Source: Candidatus Anoxymicrobiaceae bacterium
Lineage (GTDB): Bacteria; Actinomycetota; Geothermincolia; Fen-727; Anoxymicrobiaceae
Assembly (NCBI GenBank): GCA_036845225.1
Contig: DAIUEJ010000009.1
Span: 1,316 to 65,315 of the forward strand
Direction: 5' to 3'
Length of the DNA: 64,000 nucleotides
Under the pieces are notes generated by a model. It saw only the letters and a list, made by a program, of their open reading frames with translations. It ran no database searches and was not told the origin of the DNA. Below are positions 8,903 through 23,059 of this stretch, piece by piece (positions within the stretch are counted from its first letter, which is position 1; every line of letters starts with the position of its first letter). Position numbers and translations under genes: made by a program.

Positions 8903-10768
8903 TTATTTCTCCCTTGTCACCCTTGCCGCTTCGTATACTGCCTCCGCCACCTTCTCCGGCATCCCGCCGACCTCCTTCAGGTCGTCGAGGGAAGCCTCCG
9001 ATACGCGCCGCGGCGAACCGAAATGCTTCAACAGGGCTTTCTTCCTGCCGGGGCCGACGCCGGCGACCGAGTCGAGCCAGGAGCTCGAGGTCGCCCTCTC
9101 CATCAAGCTGCGGTTGAAAGAGACGGCGACCCGGTGCGCTTCATCCCTGATCCGCTGGATGAGGAACAGGGCCTCGGAGTCCCTCGGCAGGAGCACAGGT
9201 TCCTTCTTCCCCGGAAGGTAGACCTCCTCGAGCCGCTTGGCGAGCGCGACGGTCTCGATGCCGGCGATGCCGAGGACTTTCAACACGTCCAGCCCGGCGT
9301 TCAACTGCCCCTTGCCTCCGTCGAGGATTATGAGGTCCGGCCTCTTCGCCCATCCCACGGCCGCGGCCGGGACAGCTCCTCCGTCCTGCAGCTCTTTCTG
9401 GTAGCGCTTGAGGCGCCGGTAGAGCACCTCCCGCATCATGCCCACGTCGTCGACGCCGGGCGTGTACTTGATTGCGAACTTGCGGTACTCCCTTCGCGCC
9501 GGGTACCCGTCCTGGAAGACCACCATCGAGCCGACCGAGGCGGTCCCCGCGAAAGTCGAGATATCGTAGCACTCGATCCGCAGCGGGAACCTCTCCAATC
9601 CCAGCGAGGCGGCGAGCTGCGCGAGCGCGGCTTCGATGCGGCCTTTGTCGCGCGCCCTCGCCACCTTCGCCCCCTCCAATGCCAGCCGGGCGTTGGCCCC
9701 CGCGAGCCCCATCTCGTGGCGCTTCTTGCCTTTGCGGGGGACGCGTATCTCGACCCGGGCTCCCCTCTGCGCCGCCAGCCACTCCACGAGCCCGCCGTCG
9801 TCGGCCGGCATCGCGGGGACGAGGACAAGCTCCGGGATGGAGCCGGCCTGGTCATAGTATCTCTTCAGAAACTCGCCCGAGAGCTCCTCGCACTCGCGCT
9901 GCTCCTCCAGGTCCGTGAAGAAGACCAGGTTCCCCAGGTGGAAGCCGCCCCTGTTCTGCGCGACTGAAAAGCAGGCCGACATGCCGTCATCGAATATCCC
10001 GATGACGTCGTAGTCTTCCCGGGTCGCGGACAGCGCCCTGTGGTGCCTGAGGACCTGCTCCGCCGACTCGATCTGGTTTCGTATCCGGGCGGCCTGCTCG
10101 TACTCCTCGTCGCGGGCGGCGGCCCTCATCCGGGTGTCGAGGTCGGCCATGACCTCCACGTGCCTGCCCTCAAGAAAATCGCAGAACTGCTTGACGTGCC
10201 TCATGTATTCGGCTGACGGCACCGAACCCCGGCACGGCCCCAGGCACATGTTCATCTCGTAATACAGGCAGGGCGAGTGGCCTTTCTGCCCGGGCACGGC
10301 GCCCGTGCAATGCCTCAGTGGGAACACCTTCTTCAGGAGGCGGATGGTGTTGCGAGCCGCGCGGGCGTTCACGTAGGGACCGTAGTATTTGACGCCCCTT
10401 ATCCTCTTGCCCCTGACCAGGGCGACCCTCGGGAACTCCTCGCTCACGAAGACGGCGATGTATGGGTAACTCTTGTCGTCGCGAAGGATGACGTTGAACC
10501 GGGGCTTGTACCTCTTGATGAGGGTCGCCTCGAGGATGAGGGCGTCTACCTCGGTCTGGCACACGTTCACCTCGAGGTCGGCGATCTCCTCGCGCAGCGC
10601 CTCGCCCTTGTAGTCGCCGGCGGCCGGCGCCTGAAAATATGACCTGACGCGGTTCGAAAGCTCTTTTGCCTTGCCCACGTAGATCACTTTTCCGGCGCTG
10701 TTGGAAAAGACGTAGACTCCCGGCCGTGCCGGAAGCGTCTCCAGCTTCGCCCTCAGGCCCTGGTTCAC
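8903..10768 (-). CDS. uvrC: Excinuclease ABC subunit C
   Basis: The 621 aa product has an N-terminal GIY-YIG domain (PGVYVF...KVIYVGKAK), a UvrBC-interaction domain, an endonuclease domain and a C-terminal HhH domain. Confidence 0.95.
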
Positions 10769-13626
10769 CTGGCCTTCGCCGCCTTCGGCCGCCTTCGAGA
10801 GCCGCGGCCCTCGAGGACCTCGGCCAGGTACTTCCCGGTGTAAGACCGCCTGGTTGCCGCGATCTGTTCTGGCGAGCCGGTGGCGATCAGCTCCCCGCCC
10901 TTGTCGCCACCCTCGGGCCCCAGGTCGATGATATGGTCCGCCACCTTGACGACGTCCATGTTGTGCTCGACCACGACCACCGTGTTGCCGCCTTCGACCA
11001 GGCGGTCCAGCACCTCGATCAGCTTGCTGATGTCGTCGAAGTGCAGGCCGGTGGTCGGCTCGTCGAGAAGGTAGAGCGTCCTTCCGGTCGGCCTCTTGGC
11101 GAGCTCCCTCGCCAGCTTGACCCTTTGCGCTTCCCCGCCGGAGAGCGTCGGCGCCGGCTGGCCCAGCCGTACGTAGCCCAAGCCTACGTCCGACAGTATC
11201 TGGAGCTGGCGATTGATGTTCGGTATGTTTGTGAACAGGGCCATGGCCTCCTCGACCGTCAGCTCGAGTACCTCGTGGATGTTCTTGCCCTTGTAATGTA
11301 TCTCGAGCGTCTCGCGGTTGTAGCGCTTGCCCTTACACACGTCGCAGGAGACGTAGACGTCCGGCAGGAAGTGCATCTCGATCTTCACCATGCCCTCGCC
11401 TTTGCACGCCTCGCACCTGCCGCCGGCCACGTTGAAGCTGAACCTCCCCGGCTTGTAGCCGCGCACCTGCGCCTGGGGCGTGCTGGCGAAGAGCGTCCTG
11501 ACGCCGTCGAACACCTTGGTGTACGTCGCGGCGTTGGACCGCGGCGTGCGGCCGATCGGAGACTGGTCTATGTTCACGACCTTGTCTATCTCTTCGACTC
11601 CGTCTATCCCCTTGTGCCGCCCCGGAGGCGTGCGCGAGGAGGAGAGCTTGCGCCGCAGCCCGCGGTACAGCACCTCGCTCACCAGGGTGCTCTTGCCCGA
11701 CCCGCTCACGCCGGTCACGCAGGTGAAGACTCCGAGCGGGAACGAGACGTCGATGTCCTTGAGGTTGTGCTCCGTAGCTCCCCTGACCACCAGGGCCCTG
11801 TCGGTGGGGGGCCGGCGCGTCCGGGGCACAGGTATCTCCAGCTCCCCGGAGAGGTACTTGCCGGTGATAGAGCCTTTGCTGGCGATGATGTCTTCCACTG
11901 TCCCGGTGGCGACGATGTGCCCTCCATGGATGCCGGCCCCGGGGCCGATGTCCACGACGTAGTCGGCGGCGCGTATGGTGTCCTCGTCGTGCTCGACGAC
12001 TATCACGGTGTTGCCGAGGTCCCGGAGCCTCTTCAGCGTCTCTATCAGTCGTTTGTTGTCGCGCTTGTGGAGCCCCACGCTCGGCTCGTCAAGAATATAG
12101 AGGACGCCCACCAGCCCCGAGCCGATCTGTGTCGCGAGCCTGATCCTCTGAGACTCCCCGCCCGCCAGCGTGCTCGCCTGGCGCGAGAGCGTGAGGTAGT
12201 CCAGCCCCACGTCCATCAGGAACTGGAGCCTCGCCCTCACCTCCTTGAGGAGACGCCCCGCGATGGTCTTCTGCCTTGCGTCGAGCTTCAGGTCCTTGAT
12301 GAATCCGATGGCGTGCTCGACGGTCAGGTCCGACAGCTCCGAGATGTTCATGCCGCCGACCGTCACCGCGAGGCTCTCGGGGCGCAGCCGCGCTCCCCCG
12401 CAGGACGGGCAGGGCTTGACGCTCATGAACATACCTATCCTCCAGCGGGCGTACTCCGACTCGGTCTCCTTGTAGCGCCGCTCCAGGATGGGGATGACGC
12501 CTTCCCAGGTGGTGTAGTAAGTCCTCTGCCTGTTGCGGGAATCGAGGTGCCTCACCAGTATCTCGTCGTCCCCGGTGCCGAAGAGCACCATGTTCTGCGC
12601 GCGCTCGTCGAGGTCCTTGAAGGGAACCGTCAGCGGGAATCCGTATGTGTCGGCGAGCGCCTCCAGCACGCTGTAGAAGTGAGTCTGGGTCGCCGCTTCC
12701 CACGGAGCGACAGCGCCGTCGATGAGCGTCCTGTCGGGGTCCGGGACCACCAGCTCGGCATCGATCTCCAGCCGGTGACCGAGCCCGCCGCAGGTGGTGC
12801 ACGCCCCGTAGGGGTTGTTGAACGAGAACATGCGCGGGGACAGCTCGGGAAACGATATGGCGCAGTGTACACAGGAGAACTCCTCGGAAAAGATGTCGCG
12901 GCGGTCGGTTTCGTCCTGGACCGCCACCATCCCCTCCCCCAGGTGCAGCGCCGCCTCCACGGATTCGGCGACCCTGCTGCGCGCGTCCTCCTTGATGACC
13001 AGGCGGTCGACCACGGCCATTATTTCGTGTTTCTTGTTCTTGTCGAGGTCGATCTGCTCCGAGAGGTCGAACACCTCTCCGTCGACCAGCACGCGGACGT
13101 ACCCGCGGTGCCGCAGGTTCTCGAAGACCGCCGCGTGCTCGCCCTTGCGCCCCCTCACCAGCGGGGCAAGGACCATTATCTTCCTGCCCTCGCCCATCTC
13201 CATCACGAGGTCGGTTATCTGCTCGGGGGACTGCCGCGAGACAGGCCTTCCGCACTCGTAGCAGTGCGGCTCCCCGATCCGTGCGTAGAGGACGCGCAGG
13301 TAGTCGTAGATCTCGGTGACGGTGCCGACCGTGGACCGCGGGTTGGACGTCCCGGCTTTCTGGTCGATCGATATCGCTGGCGACAGGCCCTCGATGAGGT
13401 CGACGTCAGGCTTGTCCAGCTGGCCCAGGAACTGGCGCGCGTAAGACGACAGCGACTCGACGTAGCGGCGCTGGCCCTCCGCGTAGATGGTATCGAATGC
13501 GAGCGACGACTTGCCCGAGCCGCTGATGCCCGTCATCACTATCATCTTGTTCCGGGGCAGGTCGAGCTTCACGTCCTTCAGGTTATGCTCGCGCGCCCCT
13601 CTTATCTTCAGCAGTTCGTTATTCAC
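10765..13626 (-). CDS. uvrA: Excinuclease ABC subunit A
   Basis: The 953 aa product has two ABC ATPase modules ([12 protein letters not shown]..., [11 protein letters not shown]...) and zinc-finger Cys clusters. It overlaps uvrC by 4 nt. Confidence 0.97.
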
Positions 13627-15616
13627 CTGGCAGCAGTTCCTCGCTGATATGTTTGATCTCGTCCCGGAGCCTGGCCGCGTCCTCGAAGCGCAGCTCCTCC
13701 GCGAGCAGCCTCATCTCTTCCTCCATGTTCAAGAGCAGGCGCTGGAGCTGCGCGGGGGACATCCCCCTCGCCCTCTCGACGGGATCGTCGGACGGCCCCG
13801 CCCCGGCAGCCAGCGTGACCTCGAGTATGTCCCTGACCTCCTTCTGGATGGTCTGCGGGCTGATGCCGTGCTCCTCGTTGTAGAGCACCTGCTTCTCGCG
13901 CCTTCGCTGCGTCTCCTCGATGGCGCCTCTCATGGCCTCGGAAGTGTCCTGTGCGTAGAGTATCACCATGCCGCCCGCATTCCTGCTGGCCCTGCCCATC
14001 GTCTGGATCAGGCTCCGCTCGCTGCGCAGGAACCCCTGCTTGTCGGCGTCCAGGATCGCCACCAGCGAGACCTCCGGCAGGTCGAGCCCCTCGCGCAGCA
14101 GGTTTATCCCGACCAGCACGTCGAACACGCCGGCGCGCAGGTCTCGCAGGATCTCCACGCGCTCCACCGTTCCTATCTCGGAGTGGAGGTAGCGTGACTT
14201 TACCCCCATCTCGTCGAGGTACTCGGACAGCGTCTCCGACATCTTCTTGGTGAGCGTGGTCACCAGCACGCGCTCCCGCTTCACCACCCTCTCGCGTATC
14301 TCCGACATCAGGTCGTCGATCTGCCCCTCGGCGGGCCGTATCACTACGGCGGGGTCCACGAGCCCGGTGGGGCGGATCACCTGCTCCGCGACCCTCGTGC
14401 TCATCTGCATCTCGAAGTCCGCGGGCGTCGCGCTCACGAACACCACCTCGCCGACCTTGTCGAAGAACTCCTCGCGAGACAGTGGCCGGTTGTCGAGCGC
14501 GGAGGGCAGGCGGAACCCGTGCTCCACCAGGGTCTGCTTGCGCGAGCGGTCTCCGTTCAACATCCCCGAGAGCTGCGGGACGGTGATGTGCGACTCGTCG
14601 ATGAAGGTCAGCATCCCGTCGGGGAAAAAATCGATCAGGGTGTACGGCGGCTCACCCTCTTTGCGCCCCGAAAGGTGACGTGAGTAGTTCTCGATGCCGT
14701 GGCAGTAGCCGGTCTCCCGCAACATCTCGAGGTCGTACATGGTCCGCATCCTCAGCCTCTGTTCCTCGAGCAGCTTGCCCCGGGAGCGCAACAGCTCGAG
14801 GCGCGCGTCCAGCTCCTCCTCTATGCCCTTGATCGCCGCCGCCAGCTGGCTCGACGGCGTGAGAAAGTGGGTCGCCGGCCAGACCACCGTGCGGTCCAGG
14901 TCCGCCAGCACTTCACCGGTCAGGGGGTCGACCTGGGTGATGCGCTCGACGGTGTCGCCGAACATGTCCACCCTGACCGCAGCCTCGTCCCAGTATGCGG
15001 GGTAGATGTCGATCACGTCCCCGCGCACGCGGAACTTGCCGCGGTCCGGGGCGATGTCGTTCCGCTCGTACCTGATGTCGACCAGCCGTCGCAGGATGTC
15101 CTCGCGCTCGTACTCCTTGCCGACCTCGATCATCACCATCCGGTTCAGGTACTCGTCGGGCGAGCCGAGCCCGTAGATGCATGAGACAGAAGCGACGATG
15201 ATGACGTCCGGGCGGGAGAGCAGGGCGCTGGTGGCGCCGTGCCTCAGCCTGTCGATCTCGTCGTTGATGGACGAGTCCTTCTCGATGTAGGTGTCGGTGC
15301 TCGGAATGTAGGCCTCAGGCTGGTAGTAATCGTAGTAGCTCACAAAATACTCCACCGCGTTGTTCGGGAAGAAGTCCCTGAACTCCGAGTAGAGCTGCGC
15401 GGCGAGCGTCTTGTTCGGGGCAAGCACCAGCGTGGGCCTCTGCACCTCTTCGATCGCGCTCGCCATCGTGAACGTCTTCCCGGAACCCGTGACCCCGAGC
15501 AGGACCTGGTAGCGCTCGCAATCGTTCAGCCCCTCGACCAGGCTTGCTATTGCCTGCGGCTGGTCGCCCTGGGGGATGAACCGGGTCTCGAGCTTCAGTT
15601 TCGCCAAATGAGTCAC
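13619..15616 (-). CDS. uvrB: Excinuclease ABC subunit B
   Basis: The 665 aa product contains ...[10 protein letters not shown]... followed by the helicase motifs and a C-terminal UvrB/UvrC-interaction domain. Confidence 0.97.
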
Positions 15617-15827
15617 CCCGTGAAGAGTATCGCAAGAAAAGGGAGTCCCGCGCCATGCAGGACCCTGGGCGCATGATTCTAACCTTCAGGCGCGGCGCCT
15701 TCAATGACAAAGGTCAGTGCCTTCCGGGCGCCGCTCGGCGAACATGAGGGCAGGAATCAGCGTCCATTTATCTAAAACGTAAGTCAGACGGTATCCCGAC
15801 CGATCGTCACGAGAGAACGCCCACGCC

Positions 15828-16703
15828 ATGATGGAAAAAGCTTTCAGATGGGCCCTCTGCCTCCTGCTGCTGGCTGTGCTCGCGGGCGCCGGCTGCAGCG
15901 GGGGCACCGACCCTTCCGTCACCACGGTCAACGGTGTGAAGATGGTCGCGCGCGCCAACGGCCGCTATTTTCAGGTCTACAACAAGGGCGCCTGGAACTG
16001 GCACGTCGCCAAGGGCGCCAACATAGGCGCCTCGATGCCTGGGCACTGGTTCGGAGAGCTGGCGATACCGAAGAAGACCTACGCCCGATGGCTGGACCAG
16101 ATAGGAAGCATGGGCGCCAACAACATCCTCGTCTACGCGCTCATCGACCCCGGCTTCTACCAGGCGCTGGTGGAATACAACCGAGCGCACCCTGACAGAC
16201 GCATCTGGCTCATCCAGCAGGTGTGGCCCAACGATGAGAATGCGCCCGGCAACCTCTACCAGCCGGCCTACGCCAATGCTTACGAGAAGGAGATCGAGCT
16301 GGACGTCGACGCCTTGATGGGCAAGGCGAACATCGGAGAGCGGACCGGGCTGGCATGGGGCAAATATACCGTTAACGTGATGCCTTACGTCCTGGGCATG
16401 CTGATCGGCCGGGAGCTCCAGACCACCGAGGTCAAGGCTACGGACGAGCAGAACCCGCAGAAGACCACCTTCCAGGGCCGTTTTGCGCAGACCACCCCGG
16501 TCGCCAGCCCTATGGAATCATGGGTCGCGGAGATGGCCGACACCCTCGCCGCGCGCATGCGCCACTACGTGTGGGATGCCCCGACCGAGCCGCGCTTGAC
16601 GATCTCGCCGCTCGACCGGGTCTGGAACCTGAAGGTGAGTCCGGCGGCTGCCGCGCCCGGGTTCAGGACGCAAACGTACTCGTCGAAGGCGCCGCCCGTG
16701 TAG
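15828..16703 (+). CDS. Putative lipoprotein, possibly a TIM-barrel glycoside-hydrolase-like fold; function unknown
   Basis: It has a signal peptide MMEKAFRWALCLLLLAVLAGAGC with a lipobox-like Cys. The mature part (…GANNILVYALIDPGFY…IWLIQQVWPNDENAP…) loosely resembles GH5/cellulase-like families. The 3' 139 nt overlap the convergent gene on the other strand. Confidence 0.55.
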   Translation: MMEKAFRWALCLLLLAVLAGAGCSGGTDPSVTTVNGVKMVARANGRYFQVYNKGAWNWHVAKGANIGASMPGHWFGELAIPKKTYARWLDQIGSMGANNILVYALIDPGFYQALVEYNRAHPDRRIWLIQQVWPNDENAPGNLYQPAYANAYEKEIELDVDALMGKANIGERTGLAWGKYTVNVMPYVLGMLIGRELQTTEVKATDEQNPQKTTFQGRFAQTTPVASPMESWVAEMADTLAARMRHYVWDAPTEPRLTISPLDRVWNLKVSPAAAAPGFRTQTYSSKAPPV

Positions 16704-17191
16704 CCCTCGGCGAAGTACCACGTCTTCGAGGCGGCGGTCGCCGCGAACACGCAGTGGCCGCCCGGCCACCTGCCCTGGTAGTTGAAGTAGATCGGGCGCT
16801 CGACGACCAGGTCCCGCTGAAGCGACGTCAGCACGACAGACACCTCCCGGTCCTGGCCAACGGCGGCGTTGACGTCGACCGTGTACCGCGACATGGGTTT
16901 TATGGAGTAAGTCTTGAGCTGCGAGCCACCCCCCTTGAACATGAAGGTAGCGTCGATGCTGGCGGTCGTGCTCTCAGGGTTGGCGATGCACAGGTACTCC
17001 TGGAATCCGCTCCCGGTGTAGCCCTCGGCGAAGTACCAGGTGCCCGGCGCCGCTGAAGCCGTGGCCGCGATCGCCGCGCCCGGAATAAGGAGCGCCACGA
17101 TAAATGCGCAGAGGGTGCCCGCGACGACCGCCGCTGCGACGGCCGACCTCGTCCTCGGTTTCGGTAAAAGCCTGCGCTTACGCAAGGTCAC
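16565..17191 (-). CDS. Secreted/anchored protein with a tandemly duplicated TWYFAEGYTG domain; unknown function
   Basis: The N-terminus is RKRRLL + hydrophobic + AxA, a Tat- or Sec-type signal. There are two copies of a TWYFAEGYTG(S/G)(G/A)F(Q/D)EY(L/V)C(I/V)xNP module. The second copy is truncated relative to the first. The start is GTG. Confidence 0.6.
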   Translation of the reverse strand: MTLRKRRLLPKPRTRSAVAAAVVAGTLCAFIVALLIPGAAIAATASAAPGTWYFAEGYTGSGFQEYLCIANPESTTASIDATFMFKGGGSQLKTYSIKPMSRYTVDVNAAVGQDREVSVVLTSLQRDLVVERPIYFNYQGRWPGGHCVFAATAASKTWYFAEGYTGGAFDEYVCVLNPGAAAAGLTFRFQTRSSGEIVKRGSVGASHT

Positions 17192-17399
17192 AGCATACCT
17201 CGAAGCACTTTCAGGAAATTCGCGCGCGGCCGGGCCCGGACCGTTTCCCGTTATTGCGCTGACACAGAATCTGACTCTGGCACTATTTATATCGGCCGGA
17301 AGGCGGCATTCTCTTGAGCTGAGCTAGCAGAATCGGGCTCGTCAGGGGGCCGCCAGCCCCTGTTTGACCCTCACTGGCATAACTGGTAACTTGAGTGAC

Positions 17400-17663
17400 A
17401 TGACCGACTCCAAGAACTGCTGGGACATCAAGAAGTGCTCCGCCGCACAGTATCTGAACTGCAAGGCCTATCTTGAGAACAAGAACTGCTGGGAGATCTC
17501 CAACCCGCGAGGCTCGCGCAGCTTGATGCTGTGCCTTCAGATGGGCTGCCCGGTCTACGAGCTCTACATGGACGAGATCGACAAGGAGATAGAGTACAGG
17601 CTGCGCATGATGTTCCCGTTCCTCGCCAGCATCGAAGAAGGCTCCAAGCCCACTCAGGAATAG
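17400..17663 (+). CDS. Small Cys/Trp-rich protein (87 aa) with duplicated KNCW-x4-(K)C motif; unknown function
   Basis: The product begins MTDSKNCWDIKKCSAAQYLNCKAYLENKNCWEISNP...LCLQMGCPVYELY.... It has 6 Cys. Local GC is clearly lower than the surroundings. The track ORF starts at TTG 17364, and the ATG at 17400 is the more likely start. Confidence 0.5.
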   Translation: MTDSKNCWDIKKCSAAQYLNCKAYLENKNCWEISNPRGSRSLMLCLQMGCPVYELYMDEIDKEIEYRLRMMFPFLASIEEGSKPTQE

Positions 17664-18319
17664 GCGGTCGCCGCGCGCCGCGCGATCTCTTGCCAGAGCT
17701 CCTGCACCCTCAAGTGAAGGTCTTCGAGGGTCCCGTTGTTCTCGATGACGATGTCTGCCATCTCCACGCGCTTTGGATCCGGCACCTGGCTTGCGATGCG
17801 GCTGCGCGCCTCGTCCTCGATCATCTTCCGCGACTCGACGAGCCTCTTCACCCGCGCATCCTCATCGGCGGTCAGCACGACCAGGACGTCGAAGACTCCG
17901 GAGACGCCGGTGTCCACGATCAGGGCGGCGTCCAGGACCGCGGCGGGCACCTTGCCGCCTCCGAGTCCGTCAGCGTAGGAGGTGACGCGCTTCACCATCT
18001 CGGAGAAGATCGCGGGGTGCGTGATGCTGTTCAGGAGCTGGAGCCTGTCGGGCTTTCCGAAGACGAGCGCCGCGAGAGCCGCGCGGTCGATGTCTCCCCG
18101 AGAGTCGAGGATTCTGTCGCCGAACTCCTGCACGAGCTTCTGGTGGGTGGGAGTGCCGGAAAGGACCACTTCGCGCGCCACCTGATCGGCGTCGACCACG
18201 AATGCGCCGAGCCGGAGCAGCTCCCGGTCGACTTCGGTCTTCCCGGAGGCGATGCCTCCTGTCAGGCCGACGATGGTGAGCCGCTCGCCAGCGGGCCCCC
18301 ACACCTCAGGATGGCCCAA
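17654..18319 (-). CDS. coaE: Dephospho-CoA kinase
   Basis: The 221 aa product begins IVGLTGGIASGKT (P-loop) and has CoaE architecture. It lies immediately downstream of rpsA as in Actinobacteria. Confidence 0.9.
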   Translation of the reverse strand: MGHPEVWGPAGERLTIVGLTGGIASGKTEVDRELLRLGAFVVDADQVAREVVLSGTPTHQKLVQEFGDRILDSRGDIDRAALAALVFGKPDRLQLLNSITHPAIFSEMVKRVTSYADGLGGGKVPAAVLDAALIVDTGVSGVFDVLVVLTADEDARVKRLVESRKMIEDEARSRIASQVPDPKRVEMADIVIENNGTLEDLHLRVQELWQEIARRAATAYS

Positions 18320-18321
18320 AC

Positions 18322-20199
18322 CTACTCCTGCTGCCCTTTGCGCTTCATGTCGGCAAGTATGGATTCGAGCGACCCGTCTTCGCCCGCTCCTTCGCGAAGG
18401 CTCTCTTCGGCCTCGACCTCACCGGCTTCGACCGGCTCCGGCTCCTCCGATGCCTCCGCCACTTCTTCCGCCGTGGGCTCTATCGCTTCTACCGCCTCGG
18501 CAACCGCCTCGAGCTCTTCAGCCGCCTCCTCTATCGCCTCCGCTACAACGGCTTCGACGACGGCCTCCTCGACTGCTTCCTCGATAGCCTCTTCGACGAT
18601 CTCTTCAACGATAGCTTCCTCGATAGCCTCTTCGACGATCTCTTCAACGATGGCTTCCTCGATAGCCTCTTCGACGATCTCTTCAACGATGGCTTCCTCG
18701 ACGGCTTCCTCGATGGCCTCCGCCTCGGCCTCCGCGTAGGCAGCCGTAGCGCTTTCGAGCTCACCGCCCTGTTCCGCCGCAGTGACCTCCGCCTCGATGT
18801 TCTCGACCGCAGCCGCGATCTCAGCCGCCTCGGAGGCGATATCCGCCATCGCTACGGGAGGCTCGGCCGGCTCGGTGTCCGCTGCCTCCGAAATGCTCTC
18901 CTCGAACTCTTCGGCGTCCACGAGCTCGGGCTCGCCGGCAGCCTCATCCTCGTAGCGGTATTCGACCTCGCCAGGCGCGGAGAGCTGCTTGAGGCTCAGC
19001 GATATCCGACGGCGGTCGAGGTCGATGTCGATTATCTTCGCGTCCACCTCTTCGCCGACGGACACGACCTCTTCGGGGAACTCGATGTGCTCCCAGGCGA
19101 GCTCGGATATATGGACGAGCCCTTCCACGCCCGGCGCTATCTCGACGAAGGCCCCGAACGGCACCAGCTTGGTGACCTTGCCGTGTACCGTCGACCCTGC
19201 CGGCTTCTCCTTGGCGAGCTTCTCCCAAGGGTCCTCCTGCGCCTTCTTCAGCGACAGCGAGACCCGCTCGCGCTCGAGGTCCACGTCCAGTATCTCGACG
19301 GTGACCTCGTCCCCTACGGCGAGCACTTCGGAAGGATGGTCGACGTGGCTCCAGGACAGTTCCGAGATGTGGATCAGCCCGTCCACCCCGCCGAGGTCGA
19401 CGAACGCGCCGAAGTTCACGATGCTCGACACGGTGCCGGCATGCTTCGAGCCCTTCTCCAGGCTCTCCAGGAACTCCTTGCGCTCGGTCGACTTCTGCTT
19501 CTCCAGGTACGCCCGGCGCGACAGGACCACGTTGTTCCTGTTCTTGTCGAGCTCGATTATCTTGGCCTCCAGCGATTGTCCCAGGAACTGGCTGAGGTCT
19601 TTCACACGCCTCATGTCCACCAGCGACGCCGGCAGGAACCCGCGCAGGCCGATGTCCAGGATGAGGCCTCCCTTGACGACCTCGATGACCTCACCCTCCA
19701 CTATGCCGTCCTCGTCCTTGATCCGCTCGATGTTGCCCCAGGCACGCTCGTACTGGGCCCTCTTCTTGGAGAGGATGAGGCGGCCTTCCTTGTCCTCCTT
19801 CTGGAGGACGAGCGCCTCGAGTTCATCTCCGGGCTGGACTATCTCCGCCGGCTTGACGTCGTACCGGATCGACAGCTCGCGCGCCGGTATCACGCCTTCC
19901 GATTTGTATCCTATGTCGAGGAGGACCTCCTCCTTGTCGACCCTCACCACCGTCCCGTGCACGATGTCGCCTTCGTTGAATATCTTGATAGTGCCATCGT
20001 AGTCGGGCACTTTCTGGCTCTCCTCTGGCGGCAGTCCGAGGCTCGCCAGCGACTCCCTTGCCTCGGCGCCGGTCAAAAGGCTCTCTTCGTCTTCGTCCAT
20101 CTCCCTTGCGTCCGTCTCCGCAGGTTGCGCAGTCTCTTCCATCGGTGTCTCGTCGGCGTTTGCAGCGTCGTCAGTGGTGTTCAGGTCCTCGTCTGTCAT
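18322..20199 (-). CDS. rpsA: 30S ribosomal protein S1 with acidic N- and C-terminal extensions
   Basis: It has four S1 domains (…GDIVHGTVVRVDKEEVLLDIGYKSEGVIP…). The likely start is ATG 20199, preceded by the RBS GGAAGGA; the track start 20217 is TTG. The C-terminal about 150 aa are a Glu/Ala/Ile/Val low-complexity tail. Confidence 0.9.
   Translation of the reverse strand: MTDEDLNTTDDAANADETPMEETAQPAETDAREMDEDEESLLTGAEARESLASLGLPPEESQKVPDYDGTIKIFNEGDIVHGTVVRVDKEEVLLDIGYKSEGVIPARELSIRYDVKPAEIVQPGDELEALVLQKEDKEGRLILSKKRAQYERAWGNIERIKDEDGIVEGEVIEVVKGGLILDIGLRGFLPASLVDMRRVKDLSQFLGQSLEAKIIELDKNRNNVVLSRRAYLEKQKSTERKEFLESLEKGSKHAGTVSSIVNFGAFVDLGGVDGLIHISELSWSHVDHPSEVLAVGDEVTVEILDVDLERERVSLSLKKAQEDPWEKLAKEKPAGSTVHGKVTKLVPFGAFVEIAPGVEGLVHISELAWEHIEFPEEVVSVGEEVDAKIIDIDLDRRRISLSLKQLSAPGEVEYRYEDEAAGEPELVDAEEFEESISEAADTEPAEPPVAMADIASEAAEIAAAVENIEAEVTAAEQGGELESATAAYAEAEAEAIEEAVEEAIVEEIVEEAIEEAIVEEIVEEAIEEAIVEEIVEEAIEEAVEEAVVEAVVAEAIEEAAEELEAVAEAVEAIEPTAEEVAEASEEPEPVEAGEVEAEESLREGAGEDGSLESILADMKRKGQQE
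18568..18716 (-). repeat. 39-bp tandem repeat (about 3.5 copies) inside the rpsA 3' end, encoding (EAIVEEIVEEAIE)n
   Basis: The unit cgatagcctcttcgacgatctcttcaacgat(g/a)gcttcct recurs at about 18582, 18621 and 18660. Confidence 0.8.
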
Positions 20200-20350
20200 C
20201 GTTGTTTTTCCTTCCAATAGCCGGTACGTACGCTATATAGAAACACATACCTTTTGACCTCGCAAGTTGGCCGCGCGCGGCCTCTCGCGGCCGGTCGGCG
20301 GGTGGGTGCAGGGTGCGGCTCTCGGGCTCGTCACGCATGGCGTCATGGGA

Positions 20351-23059
20351 TCATTGCTTGGCCTGGCCCCAGTTCTCGTAGACGCCGATGTCGACCTTGA
20401 GCGGCACAAGCATGTCAATGGCGCCCATCATCCTTTCCCGGACGAGGCCCCTCAGTTCTTCGACTTCATCGGGGGCCGCGTCGAATATGAGCTCGTCGTG
20501 TATCTGCAGGGTCATTCGCGAGCGCAGTCCCCCCTCCGCCACCGCGGCTGCCGCGTCGACCATCGCCTTCTTGATTATGTCGGCCGCCGTGCCCTGCAGA
20601 GGCGTGTTGATCGCCAGCCGCTCGCCGAGCTCCCTGGTCTGCCTGTTGGGGCTCGCCAGCTCGGGGATGAAGCGCCTGCGGCCGAGCAGCGTCACCCCGT
20701 AGCCCCTCCTCGTGGCTTCTTCGATGCAATCGTCGCGGTATCTGGCGACCCCGCCGTATGTGGCGAAGTAGGTGTCGATGTAGGCGGTGGCGTCCTCCAT
20801 GCTTATCCCCAGACGCGACGACAGCCCGTAGTACCCCATGCCGTAGACGACCCCGAAGTTGACGACCTTGGCCATGCGCCTCATCTCGCCGGTGACCTCC
20901 TCGGCGGGCACCCCGAACACCAGGGACGCGGTCTCGCTGTGTATGTCCGCGTCCCGCTCGAAGGCTGCCAGCAGAAGCCCGTCGCGGGACATGTGCGCGA
21001 GCACGCGCAGCTCGATCTGCGAGTAGTCCGCGACCAGCATCTTCCAGCCCGGCTCCCCTGGGATGAAAGCCTCGCGGATCTTTCGCCCGACTTCGGTACG
21101 GACCGGGATGTTCTGCACGTTGGGGTTGCTGGACGAGATCCGACCGGTGGCCGTGGCGGTCTGGTTGAACAGCGAGTGCACCCTTCCTGTCGACTCGCAC
21201 ACCAGCGCCGGCAGCACGTCGAAATACGTCGACTTCAGCTTCGAGTACTCCCTGTACTCGATCACCTTGGCGGCGATCTCGTGCGAATCGCGAAGCGCCT
21301 CGAGCACCGACACGTCTGTGGAGTAGCCCGTTTTGGTCTTCTTCTGCGCAGGCAGGCCCAGCTCGTCGAACAGGACCTGGGCGAGCTGCCGCGTCGAGCC
21401 TATCTTGAACTCGTGGCCGGCCAGCGCGTAGATGTCCTGCTCCAGGCTGCCCAGGATGCCGGCGGCTTCTTCAGAGAGCGACCGCAGCGCCCCGGCGTCC
21501 AGCGCAACCCCCGTCTCTTCCATCTCTTTGAGCACGAACGCGAGCGGCAGCTCCACCTCTTCGAGAAGGCTCCTCATCCCGAGGGCGTGGAGCTTCTCTT
21601 CAAGGACCGGCTTCAGGTGATAGACCCTGCCTGCGTCGGTGGCGGCCTTCACGTCTTCCTCGTGATACCAGTCGCTGTCCGGCTCGTCCAGGAGAGACGG
21701 CTGGACACCGCGTTCGCGCCATTCCTCGTGCCCGGCCACCGTCACCGACCCGCCCAGGTTCCTCTCCCAGATGTCCCAGAGGTGGTACGTCCCGAGCGAC
21801 GGGTTCTCCAGGTAAGCCGCGAGCACCGTGTCGAAAGAGACGCTCCTTGCGACGATCGCTTCTTTGTCGAGCGCCTCGAGGGTCGCCTTCGCGTCGTGAA
21901 ACCATTTCTCGACGCCCTCCGACTCCACGAGAGCCCGTGCTGTGCCGAACGCCCCGCCGTCATCCGGCCGGGCGACCATTACGCTCTTCGCGGTGGCGAG
22001 CGCCAGGGCGACCAGCCTCACTTCGCAGAAGCCCGAACCACTGAGGATGGAGGACACCCCCACGGCCCCGGCCTCTTCCGCCTCGCGCGCGAAAGATGCC
22101 AGCGCGCTCATGTCGGACGGATCGACCATCGCATATTCGATCGACTCCCCATGGGCCTCGGCGCCCTCCGGCAACTGGGTGCCGTACATCTCCATGAAGC
22201 GCTTGGCCAGCGTCTTGAACTCCAGGGCGGAGAGGTAGTCCAGCACCTCGTGCTTATCCCAATCGGCAAACGAGACCTTCGTGATATCGAGTTCGATGGG
22301 CACGTCGGTATCGAGCCGGGAGAGCTTCCTCGAGAGGAACGCGATGTCCCGGTTCTCCTCGAGAGCGCTCTTCCTCTTCGCGCCGGTTATCTCCCCCAGG
22401 TGCTCGTAGAGCCCCTCGAGCGAACCGTACTGGCTTATCAAGGCCGAGGCCCCTTTCTCGCCGATGCCGGGGACCCCGGGGATGTTGTCGGAGGCGTCGC
22501 CCTTGAGGCCGGCCACGTCAGGAAGCTGCCCGGGGGTGACACCGTACTTCTGGACCACAGCCTCCGGGTCGAACGAGACCGTCTCGGTGATACCCTTGCC
22601 GGTCATCACCACCCTGACGCCGGGCCGGACCAACTGGAGCGTGTCGCGATCGCCGGTGACGATCACAGCCTCGTCTCCCAGCTCGGCGGCCCTGAGAGCG
22701 ATCGTCGCGAGCACGTCGTCGGCCTCGTGGCCCGTTACCGTGACGATCGGTATCCTCATGTGGCCCAGAAGGTGCTCGATCATCTCGATCTGTCCGCGCA
22801 GCTCGTCGGGCATGGTCGGCCGGTGCGCTTTGTATTCGGGGAACTCGTGGGTCCTCTTCAGTTCGGAGCGAGGGCCGTCAAGGGCGACGACGACCGCGTC
22901 GGGCTTCTCCTCGTCGAGGACTTTCAAGAGCATGCTGGTGAAGCCGTAGAGGGCATTGGTCGGTTGGCCCCCGGTCGTGGTCATGGTCGCGGGCAGCGCG
23001 AAGAAAGCCCTGTAGGCAAGGCTGTGGCCGTCCAGCAGCAGTACTTTTCTTTCAGCCAA
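20351..23059 (-). CDS. polA: DNA polymerase I
   Basis: The 902 aa product has an N-terminal 5'-3' exonuclease domain (LLLDGHSLAYRAFFAL), a 3'-5' exonuclease-like domain and a polymerase domain (…RRMAKVVNFGVVYGM…QIHDELIF…). Confidence 0.97.
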   Translation of the reverse strand: MAERKVLLLDGHSLAYRAFFALPATMTTTGGQPTNALYGFTSMLLKVLDEEKPDAVVVALDGPRSELKRTHEFPEYKAHRPTMPDELRGQIEMIEHLLGHMRIPIVTVTGHEADDVLATIALRAAELGDEAVIVTGDRDTLQLVRPGVRVVMTGKGITETVSFDPEAVVQKYGVTPGQLPDVAGLKGDASDNIPGVPGIGEKGASALISQYGSLEGLYEHLGEITGAKRKSALEENRDIAFLSRKLSRLDTDVPIELDITKVSFADWDKHEVLDYLSALEFKTLAKRFMEMYGTQLPEGAEAHGESIEYAMVDPSDMSALASFAREAEEAGAVGVSSILSGSGFCEVRLVALALATAKSVMVARPDDGGAFGTARALVESEGVEKWFHDAKATLEALDKEAIVARSVSFDTVLAAYLENPSLGTYHLWDIWERNLGGSVTVAGHEEWRERGVQPSLLDEPDSDWYHEEDVKAATDAGRVYHLKPVLEEKLHALGMRSLLEEVELPLAFVLKEMEETGVALDAGALRSLSEEAAGILGSLEQDIYALAGHEFKIGSTRQLAQVLFDELGLPAQKKTKTGYSTDVSVLEALRDSHEIAAKVIEYREYSKLKSTYFDVLPALVCESTGRVHSLFNQTATATGRISSSNPNVQNIPVRTEVGRKIREAFIPGEPGWKMLVADYSQIELRVLAHMSRDGLLLAAFERDADIHSETASLVFGVPAEEVTGEMRRMAKVVNFGVVYGMGYYGLSSRLGISMEDATAYIDTYFATYGGVARYRDDCIEEATRRGYGVTLLGRRRFIPELASPNRQTRELGERLAINTPLQGTAADIIKKAMVDAAAAVAEGGLRSRMTLQIHDELIFDAAPDEVEELRGLVRERMMGAIDMLVPLKVDIGVYENWGQAKQ

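Follow-up and report, generated by a model that had tools for sequence, protein, structure and literature searches.

ORF1 and ORF2, two of the three open reading frames between uvrB and coaE in the DNA analyzed here (64,000 nucleotides, hereafter the window), are what remains of two convergent genes, their 5' stumps, after a recent deletion removed 6.2 kb from a five-gene cassette. ORF3 is a core gene of Candidatus Geothermincolia and is separate from that cassette. We are confident of this explanation as a whole, in which a probable surface-glucan cassette has been reduced to two deletion stumps beside a separate core gene. The three frames (15828-16703, +, 291 aa; 16565-17191, -, 208 aa; 17400-17663, +, 87 aa), the duplicated TWYFAEGYTG module and a patch of lower GC content were found where the initial annotation had placed them. 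Its reading of the three genes as one module did not survive, since ORF1 and ORF2 are the remnant of a five-gene cassette after an internal deletion. The features of the locus are listed in Table 1.

Table 1. Features of the uvrB-coaE interval in window coordinates
Feature	Position	Strand	Description
uvrB	13619..15616	-	Intact housekeeping gene on the left flank; 665-aa ORF
uvrB promoter/leader	15634..15704	-	From promoter and terminator scan
ORF1 stump	15828..16583	+	Signal peptide, lipobox and first 252 residues of a 749-aa lipoprotein; putative glycoside-hydrolase-like family
ORF2 read-through tail	16565..16579	-	4 codons and stop, antisense to ORF1
Deletion junction	16580..16583	.	4-nt microhomology CCCG, common to both breakpoints; flanks read directly
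ORF2 stump	16580..17191	-	Signal/anchor sequence and about 1.5 DUF5719 modules; first 204 residues of a 745-aa DUF5719-GH17 protein
ORF1 read-through tail	16584..16703	+	39 codons and stop, antisense to the ORF2 stump; non-native protein sequence
ORF3 promoter	17364..17392	+	-35 TTGACC (17364-17369), 17-nt spacer, extended -10 TGgTAACTT with -10 at 17387-17392
ORF3	17400..17663	+	Intact conserved 87-aa protein; 3' end overlaps coaE by 10 nt
coaE	17654..18319	-	Intact housekeeping gene on the right flank; 221-aa ORF; Pfam CoaE match on identical product

The deletion was identified by comparison with close relatives. In three of them (L030, L031 and L034) the whole cassette is present between uvrB and ORF3, and the flanks show 99.0-99.9% nucleotide identity to the window. 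Against these strains the window falls into two colinear blocks with an overlap of 4 nt: in the alignment, window 10000-16583 corresponds to L030 4173-10756 and window 16580-20381 to L030 16955-20756. The close relatives thus carry an intact orthologous allele at the same locus, colinear save for one gap, and 6,202 bp of it are missing from the window. Five proteins are encoded by the intact cassette: a lipoprotein of 749 aa, a GT2 synthase, a protein with HEAT repeats, a response regulator and a DUF5719-GH17 protein of 745 aa. The GT2 synthase matches the Pfam families Glyco_tranf_2_3 and Glyco_trans_2_3 and, more weakly, Chitin_synth_2. We rejected a relocation of the missing genes within the window, as it contains no further copy of any of them.

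ORF1 represents the N-terminal third of a much longer lipoprotein. The stump differs from the L031 gene, which continues to 749 aa, by 3 mismatches in 756 nt. Homology to the 783-aa L010 protein (P0059) stops at residue 252, and no family homology was found beyond residue 253; residues 252-291 match solely L005, in the antisense frame of its DUF5719-GH17 gene. All 150 homologues listed, mostly 700-1200 aa long, match ORF1 only to about residue 240-274. Of the 23 invariant residues of the family 8 are kept, and the other 15 lie beyond residue 252. The assignment of ORF1 as a lipoprotein proved correct. Its lipobox LLLAVLAGAGC, with Cys23 and with K4 and R7 near the N-terminus, agrees with a PROSITE PS51257-style rule (six uncharged positions before [LIVMFWSTAG](2)-[LIVMFYSTAGCQ]-[AGS]-C, the Cys at 15-35, and K/R near the N-terminus). 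The Cys after the hydrophobic stretch is retained in the lipoproteins of L004, L010 and L031.

A word-indexed search for homologues of ORF1 gave one protein, and an exhaustive search revealed the family, which comprises 845 clusters, has no Pfam model and includes members fused to GT2. The family gave no Pfam match, and neither P0059 nor the family profile A2 found anything meaningful in sequence searches of the PDB. The single-sequence AF2 model of P0059 had a pLDDT of 32. Weak GH72 matches were obtained for 2 of 29 full-length members. In a profile-profile alignment the invariant family motifs 'AEFGLP' and 'WQDEWFK' fell on 'ETGWPS' and 'FEAFDEMWK' of GH17, at an hhalign probability of 2% (P=0.02). 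These weak sequence hints point to a GH72/GH17-like member of clan GH-A rather than to the possible GH5-like TIM-barrel of the initial annotation, and the full-length lipoprotein is probably an outward-facing, clan GH-A glycoside-hydrolase-like enzyme.

ORF2 ends in the same manner. Its residues 1-204 are 98-99.5% identical to the proteins of L030, L031 and L034, where the gene encodes 745 aa. Residues 4-204 align with residues 22-221 of a 764-aa protein of L010, and this homology, too, ends at 204. ORF2 contains two TWYFAEGYTG...EY.C..NP copies and narrowly passes the gathering cut-off of Pfam DUF5719 (PF18986) with 27.2 bits against 26.2, while a full-length relative scores 64.8 bits. Most of the 295 homologues found are annotated PF18986. 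The parent protein has about four repeat modules followed by GH17; ORF2 retains about 1.5 of at least four, and 2.5 modules and the GH17 domain are missing. GH17 (PF00332) was matched by no window ORF in the Pfam search and was found in intact relatives only (35.7 bits against a cut-off of 28.2), where the alignment is confined to the C-terminal portion of the profile. In the Pfam and NCBIfam scan of the three ORFs, nothing was found beyond this marginal DUF5719 match of ORF2 and a sub-threshold two-CW match of ORF3. The earlier statement that no recognised enzyme family could be assigned holds only in part: it fails for ORF2, the N-terminus of a DUF5719-GH17 protein, and for ORF1, whose family of 845 clusters exists outside Pfam.

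The sequence of events was as follows. Illegitimate recombination or replication slippage between two CCCG tetranucleotides removed the 6,202 bp, which begin at codon 253 in the lipoprotein gene and extend to codon 205 in that of the DUF5719-GH17 protein. The outer genes of the cassette being convergent, their promoter-proximal parts now abut, and past the junction each stump is read in antisense to its partner up to a chance stop codon. It is this reading into each other's antisense that gives the ORFs of 291 and 208 aa with their 139-nt overlap, which was already present in the coordinates of the initial annotation but drew no comment there.

Since the stumps are still open and their signal sequences are intact, truncated proteins may be expressed. 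The best surviving alternative is that one or both stumps have been kept as working short secreted proteins. The intact reading frames and signal peptides, the frequent occurrence of stand-alone DUF5719 proteins of 220-360 aa, and the independent retention of very similar N-terminal fragments in L003 and L004 are consistent with it. Selection, however, has had no time to act on so young a deletion (3 mismatches in 756 nt against the intact allele); ORF1 lacks 15 of 23 invariant residues and carries a 39-aa antisense tail, and ORF2 stops in the middle of a repeat module. The dN/dS values between the window and L004 (0.16 for ORF1 and 0.37 for ORF2) reflect mostly the history before the deletions; as these postdate the divergence, the values cannot settle the function of the stumps. 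We therefore consider retention of function improbable and take ORF1 and ORF2 to be fresh pseudogene remnants.

ORF3 adjoins coaE in all 23 Candidatus Geothermincolia lineages examined, and ORF3 with its own promoter is kept in lineages that never had the cassette. This promoter is the sole block that aligns upstream of ORF3 across more than 20 lineages. The ATG lies 7 nt past the -10 box, so that the mRNA is probably leaderless, and the TTG 'start' of a 99-aa version of ORF3 is the -35 box itself. The 57 homologues are all 68-100% identical except for one 48-aa fragment, the dN/dS is 0.08-0.10, and eight residues are invariant (C7, W8, C13, C21, C30, W31, C45 and C50, i.e. six Cys and two CW motifs). 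ORF3 had been described as secreted. It has no signal peptide and is cytoplasmic.

On the NCBIfam two-CW domain (NF045718) ORF3 scored 14-15 bits (E=0.02-0.04), short of the cut-off of 35 bits. Weak matches spanning both CW motifs were found in 49 of 53 family members, at no more than about 15 bits and with a best E-value of 0.005. The AF2 model was moderate (pLDDT 71), and a Foldseek search of it against the PDB gave no match. We found no papers in the literature on DUF5719 or the two-CW domain. A metal or an Fe-S cluster is the most likely ligand of the protein, an assignment of low confidence. More speculatively, the protein could be a metal or Fe-S redox sensor or regulator tied to the DNA repair or replication genes.

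ORF3 has a fixed place, with the uvrABC block on one side and the coaE-rpsA-polA block on the other, and its promoter stands back-to-back with that of uvrB. The uvrB product is 75-92% identical to those of related loci, which have UvrB Pfam domains. The uvrB promoter consists of a -35 box TTGAAG (15704-15699) and a -10 box TAGAAT (15681-15676), followed in the leader downstream of the -10 by a hairpin and U-run (15665-15634). Both boxes and the hairpin are also present in most relatives. In the consensus fold of the hairpin, 2 of 6 pairs showed compensatory changes, in a poor alignment, and the single-sequence z-score was -0.7. An Rfam scan of 13000-21000 at E<=1 gave no matches.

The conservation of ORF3 bears directly on the proposal that the three genes form an intact, horizontally acquired module whose secreted and Cys-rich products act together. 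All three frames are open, ORF1 and ORF2 carry export signals, the region is missing in most relatives, and the local GC content is lower (0.55-0.56 against 0.64 for the window). On the other hand, strains 99% identical in DNA carry intact alleles of which ORF1 and ORF2 are truncated forms, and ORF3 belongs to the core, with its own promoter kept in lineages free of the cassette. The values of GC at third codon positions (GC3; 0.853, 0.882 and 0.875 for ORF1, ORF2 and ORF3) are within those of the neighbours (0.80-0.91; uvrB 0.907, coaE 0.860). The GC dip is due to codon positions 1 and 2 and to intergenic DNA. It cannot serve as the sign of transfer for which it had been taken, and recent horizontal transfer was rejected on the basis of the host-like GC3. 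We regard an intact module as very unlikely. The notion of an accessory insert is right for the DNA between uvrB and ORF3, since about 12 lineages lack the extra genes, and these genes do encode cell-surface proteins as the initial annotation had suggested. It is wrong for ORF3, which the synteny comparison found throughout the clade, a distribution that the same annotation had named as speaking against an accessory gene.

An assembly artefact at 16580, in which two pieces of an intact cassette were wrongly joined, should also be considered, because collapse and mis-joining occur in metagenome assemblies and intact alleles coexist in related samples. The identical junction, however, was found in three assemblies made from different samples with different pipelines: that of the window, L002, which is identical to it, and L001, which carries 21 SNPs. 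Colinearity extends over more than 10 kb in both flanks, and the breakpoints share 4 nt only, too few for an assembler mis-join. It is very unlikely that the junction is artificial, and we take it to be a genuine deletion. The reverse direction, in which the window is ancestral and L030 and L031 gained 6.2 kb by insertion, can be dismissed almost entirely: a comparison of two alleles alone gives no direction, but with the additional DNA two genes reach exactly the length and domain content found across their families, a result that no insertion can produce, and the complete cassette occurs in distant relatives.

These more distant relatives (L010/L005/L006, L013, L014 and the P0005 contig) carry the cassette at the same site. 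In about 12 Geothermincolia lineages the spacing between uvrB and ORF3 is just about 150-300 bp, and extra genes of this kind are present in one subclade only. The distribution of the cassette at this conserved site is patchy, that of ORF3 is not. In our explanation an ancestor of one Candidatus Anoxymicrobiaceae subclade gained the cassette, about 8 kb long, at the point where the uvrB and ORF3 promoters stand back-to-back. Of its five products, the GT2 synthase is a membrane protein and the DUF5719-repeat-GH17 protein is secreted. To judge from the domain families, and by analogy with GH17+GT2 beta-(1,3)-glucan synthases, the intact cassette most likely makes and remodels a cell-surface beta-glucan. 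Since the stumps lack the conserved putative catalytic half of the lipoprotein and the GH17 domain, the glucan pathway would have been lost at the window locus.

Decay of the cassette was observed in other strains as well. L003 and L004 have lost the same core through a different deletion, whose left breakpoint is 65 nt and whose right breakpoint is 250 nt away from those of the window, so that very similar N-terminal fragments are kept. The DUF5719-GH17 gene is absent from L012, and the lipoprotein gene of L030 has a nonsense codon at position 462. The range of alleles among near-identical strains, together with the independent loss at nearly identical breakpoints in a second lineage, could reflect strong selection against a surface glucan (e.g. 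by phage or grazers) or a deletion hot spot. That this explanation of the losses is right and that ORF3 also founds an undescribed family, possibly of redox regulators, is a speculative combination that we hold to be rather unlikely.

The case is one of ordinary gene decay, clearly resolved. Intact, nonsense and deletion alleles coexist among strains about 99% identical in DNA, and the locus is a clean natural example of the repeated loss of cell-surface glycan genes in an uncultured actinobacterial class. In routine annotation the interval would yield three hypothetical secreted proteins, two of which are stumps of a deleted polysaccharide cassette. New protein families should not be built on the stump sequences, the antisense tail of 39 residues included. 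The ORF3 family with its six invariant Cys and the large lipoprotein family without a Pfam model are worth characterising, while neither is surprising in kind.

GH17 and GT2 domains are combined in the beta-(1,3)-glucan synthases described previously (PMC10237404), the NdvB-type enzymes of pseudomonads and rhizobia. The intact cassette likewise pairs an extracellular GH17 with a processive-type GT2. In the cassette, however, GH17 and GT2 are encoded by separate genes, the GH17 is fused to DUF5719 repeats, and a large lipoprotein, a HEAT-repeat protein and a response regulator are added; the window has neither catalytic gene. The ORF1 family shows a weak motif likeness to the glucan-remodelling enzymes of clan GH-A (GH17 and the GH72 glucanosyltransferases), but the motifs aligned to GH17, the candidate nucleophile motif included, all lie past residue 252, beyond the start of the deletion, and are thus not in the window. 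With DUF5719, a secreted repeat family common in Actinomycetota, ORF2 shares the WYFAEGYTG...EY.C..NP module, although ORF2 is a fragment with 1.5 modules of a parent that carries about four and GH17. ORF3 shares with the two-CW domain its two CW motifs among invariant Cys, and differs from it in being an 87-aa protein that stands alone and has a conserved, helical C-terminal half.

What lies between uvrB and coaE is the scar of a recent deletion within an accessory, putative glucan cassette, next to the core gene ORF3. The initial annotation had taken the three reading frames found there (ORF1-ORF3) for an acquired module, which proved to be largely wrong. Our ORF map of the window confirmed the coordinates of all three frames (see the table), the N-terminus of ORF1 is of the lipoprotein type (LLLAVLAGAGC, Cys23), and the TWYFAEGYTG module of ORF2 is indeed present in duplicate. 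The 139-nt overlap of the convergent ORF1 and ORF2 had not been remarked on. In the profile searches proposed for the three products, Pfam returned only DUF5719 for ORF2, at 27.2 bits just above its cut-off of 26.2 bits, and NCBIfam only a sub-threshold match of ORF3 to two-CW.

Features of the window (coordinates in nt) and genes of the cassette in relatives
Feature	Position	Strand	Remark
uvrA	10765-13626	-	
uvrB	13619-15616	-	
ORF1	15828-16703	+	291 aa
ORF2	16565-17191	-	208 aa
ORF3	17400-17663	+	87 aa; 99-aa version from TTG 17364
coaE	17654-18319	-	
rpsA	18322-20217	-	
polA	20351-23059	-	
Left alignment block	10000-16583		L030 4173-10756
Right alignment block	16580-20381		L030 16955-20756
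Cassette, large protein		+	741-783 aa; no Pfam match
Cassette, GT2		-	476-483 aa
Cassette, HEAT-repeat protein		-	
Cassette, response regulator		-	
Cassette, PAS-HisKA gene		-	L010 only
Cassette, DUF5719-GH17 protein		-	737-764 aa

An exhaustive HMMER search with ORF1 returned 845 representative clusters (50% identity). In all 150 matches listed, the match stops at about ORF1 residue 240-274, and these proteins are mostly 700-1200 aa long. The best match, P0059 (783 aa), covers ORF1 residues 22-252 and has about 490 further residues after the aligned part. Since the family match ends early and P0059 runs on, ORF1 looks like the N-terminal fragment of a larger protein. Aligning 29 full-length members of the family gave 23 invariant residues, of which 15 come after residue 252 (D262, H266, G300, Y308, P312, Y336, E353, G355, G373, E377, D406, E407, W413, W428 and G439). 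The family is large, yet has no Pfam model; Pfam and PDB sequence searches gave no match apart from a weak one to GH72 in two of the 29 members. In hhalign comparison with neighbouring GH17 domains, the family-invariant AEFGLP and WQDEWFK fell on ETGWPS and FEAFDEMWK of GH17, weakly (P=0.02, probability 2%). Some members carry a fused GT2: as homologues such as P0061 and P0116 show, the domain forms one polypeptide with a processive-type GT2 synthase in some organisms and is joined to TPR or IPT/TIG domains in others.

By tblastn, ORF1 residues 1-252 correspond to the N-terminus of the large plus-strand cassette protein and ORF2 residues 4-204 to that of the DUF5719-GH17 protein, and for ORF1 residues 252-291 the sole match is to the DUF5719-GH17 gene read in antisense. 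The cassette occupies the uvrB-ORF3 gap at the related loci L010/L005/L006, L013 and L014 and on the P0005 contig; L012 has it without the DUF5719-GH17 gene. About 12 lineages have only some 150-300 bp between uvrB and ORF3. This short gap, flanked by two back-to-back promoters, seems to have taken up insertions repeatedly. The uvrB promoter (TTGAAG-17-TAGAAT) is conserved and is followed in the leader by a GC-rich hairpin and a U-run, GGGTCCTGCATGGCGCGGGACTCCCTTTTCTTGCGATA (both window 15634-15704, minus strand). Most Geothermincolia loci have the hairpin ahead of uvrB, with some changes that keep pairing, and it might serve as an attenuator or as a 5' stem-loop with a stabilising role. It has no Rfam match, nor did an Rfam search of window 13000-21000 give any. 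Other DNA was also seen in the gap: a 359-aa Zn-ribbon protein gene in L009 (6878-7957) and about 950 bp in L018 (9053-10000) and L019 (8967-9932).

A metagenome scan with ORF1 found three sister strains with the whole cassette (L030, L031 and L034), whose flanks are 99.0-99.9% identical to the window in DNA. The window lacks 6,202 bp of L030, and the two alignment blocks share 4 nt. The breakpoints in L030 read ...GATGCCCCG|GTCGG... (left) and ...GGGGCCCG|ACCGAG... (right), and the window junction reads ...GATGCCCCGACCGAG.... The junction results from a deletion mediated by microhomology. Lost with it are the codons for lipoprotein residues 253-749, the genes for the GT2, HEAT-repeat protein and response regulator, and the codons for DUF5719-GH17 residues 205-745; no further copy of the cassette genes occurs within the 64-kb window. 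Mis-assembly was ruled out because the same junction is present in an independent assembly (L001, 21 SNPs) and in L002. Only 3 of 756 nt distinguish the ORF1 stump from the intact allele of L031, so the deletion is very recent. Past the junction, each stump is read on through antisense sequence of its partner up to a chance stop, gaining 39 foreign codons in ORF1 (16584-16700) and 4 in ORF2, which explains the overlap. ORF2 breaks off midway through its second repeat module and lacks the GH17 domain.

The lineage of L003/L004 (uvrB 87-92% identical) carries a different deletion, in which L004 1-1387 corresponds to L031 6729-8110 and L004 1397-2333 to L031 14495-15407. It retains 65 nt absent from the window and lacks 250 nt present there, so that neither state can be derived from the other. 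The left breakpoints of the two independent core deletions (window 16580-16583; L004 1387-1397) are separated by 65 nt and the right ones by 250 nt, within outer genes that each measure about 2.2 kb. By a post-hoc estimate, such proximity has a chance of about 1% under a uniform breakpoint distribution; a hot spot, constraint or selection may lie behind it. In L030, codon 462 of the lipoprotein gene (11384-11386; 749 aa when intact) is an in-frame stop; L031 is intact there (Ser) and L034 has an N. The gene may have been failing in this population already before or alongside the deletion. In a rough neighbour-joining uvrB tree, drawn without support values, the cassette-bearing lineages all group together and the cassette-free L015 is nested among them, which fits a single gain followed by several losses.

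The proposal that the genes between uvrB and coaE are accessory held for the uvrB-ORF3 gap, the content of which varies, and failed for ORF3, which adjoins coaE in every locus. Its 57 homologues are 68-100% identical except for one 48-aa fragment, and include one in Candidatus Anoxymicrobium japonicum (class Candidatus Geothermincolia). Scanning a single genome for each species added 18 loci, all in Actinomycetota MAGs of the Candidatus Geothermincolia group. ORF3 is always convergent to coaE and usually overlaps its 3' end by 10 nt (17654-17663 in the window; likewise L007, L009, L010 and L030/L031); in L011 a 29-nt gap separates them. The overlap may account for the upkeep of the conserved C-terminal P-Q-E. 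The dN/dS of ORF3 (0.076 against L004, 0.105 against L010) is comparable to that of uvrB (0.065-0.068). Upstream, a single block, TTGACC-N17-TGnTAACTT, aligns in over 20 lineages, and the ATG follows its -10 box by 7 nt. This arrangement points to a promoter of the sigma-A type and to an mRNA that is probably leaderless. It also identifies the TTG at which the 99-aa form would start as the -35 box.

The GC dip, present in our composition scan, had been read as a sign of transfer. The low GC of ORF3 (0.557) arises at codon positions 1 (0.43) and 2 (0.36), with a GC3 of 0.875, so the dip is no evidence of transfer. ORF3 had also been called secreted, and it has no signal peptide. C7, W8, C13, C21, C30, W31, C45 and C50 are invariant in the family, and the C-terminal half is helical and conserved. 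Weak two-CW matches were obtained for 49 of 53 members (best E=0.005), all far under the cut-off. AF2, run on the alignment, gave an all-helical model with a moderate pLDDT of 70.9, for which Foldseek found no match in the PDB. Our best guess, held with low confidence, is a cytoplasmic protein binding metal or Fe-S. Farther along, the 3' end of rpsA (18322-18800, minus strand) encodes a long acidic C-terminal tail of imperfect EEAIEEAIVEEIVEEA-type repeats; its DNA self-aligns and varies in length among close strains (6 gaps against L031), and RpsA in relatives is 551-644 aa long.

The locus is ordinary genome decay, documented unusually well, and most of what is noteworthy rests with ORF3, a core, uncharacterised small gene beside the scar. 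As for the cassette, its gene content suggests a unit for synthesis and remodelling of a surface beta-glucan under two-component control. NdvB-type beta-(1,3)-glucan synthases combine a processive-type GT2 with an exported GH17 (PMC10237404), and the cassette has the same pairing.
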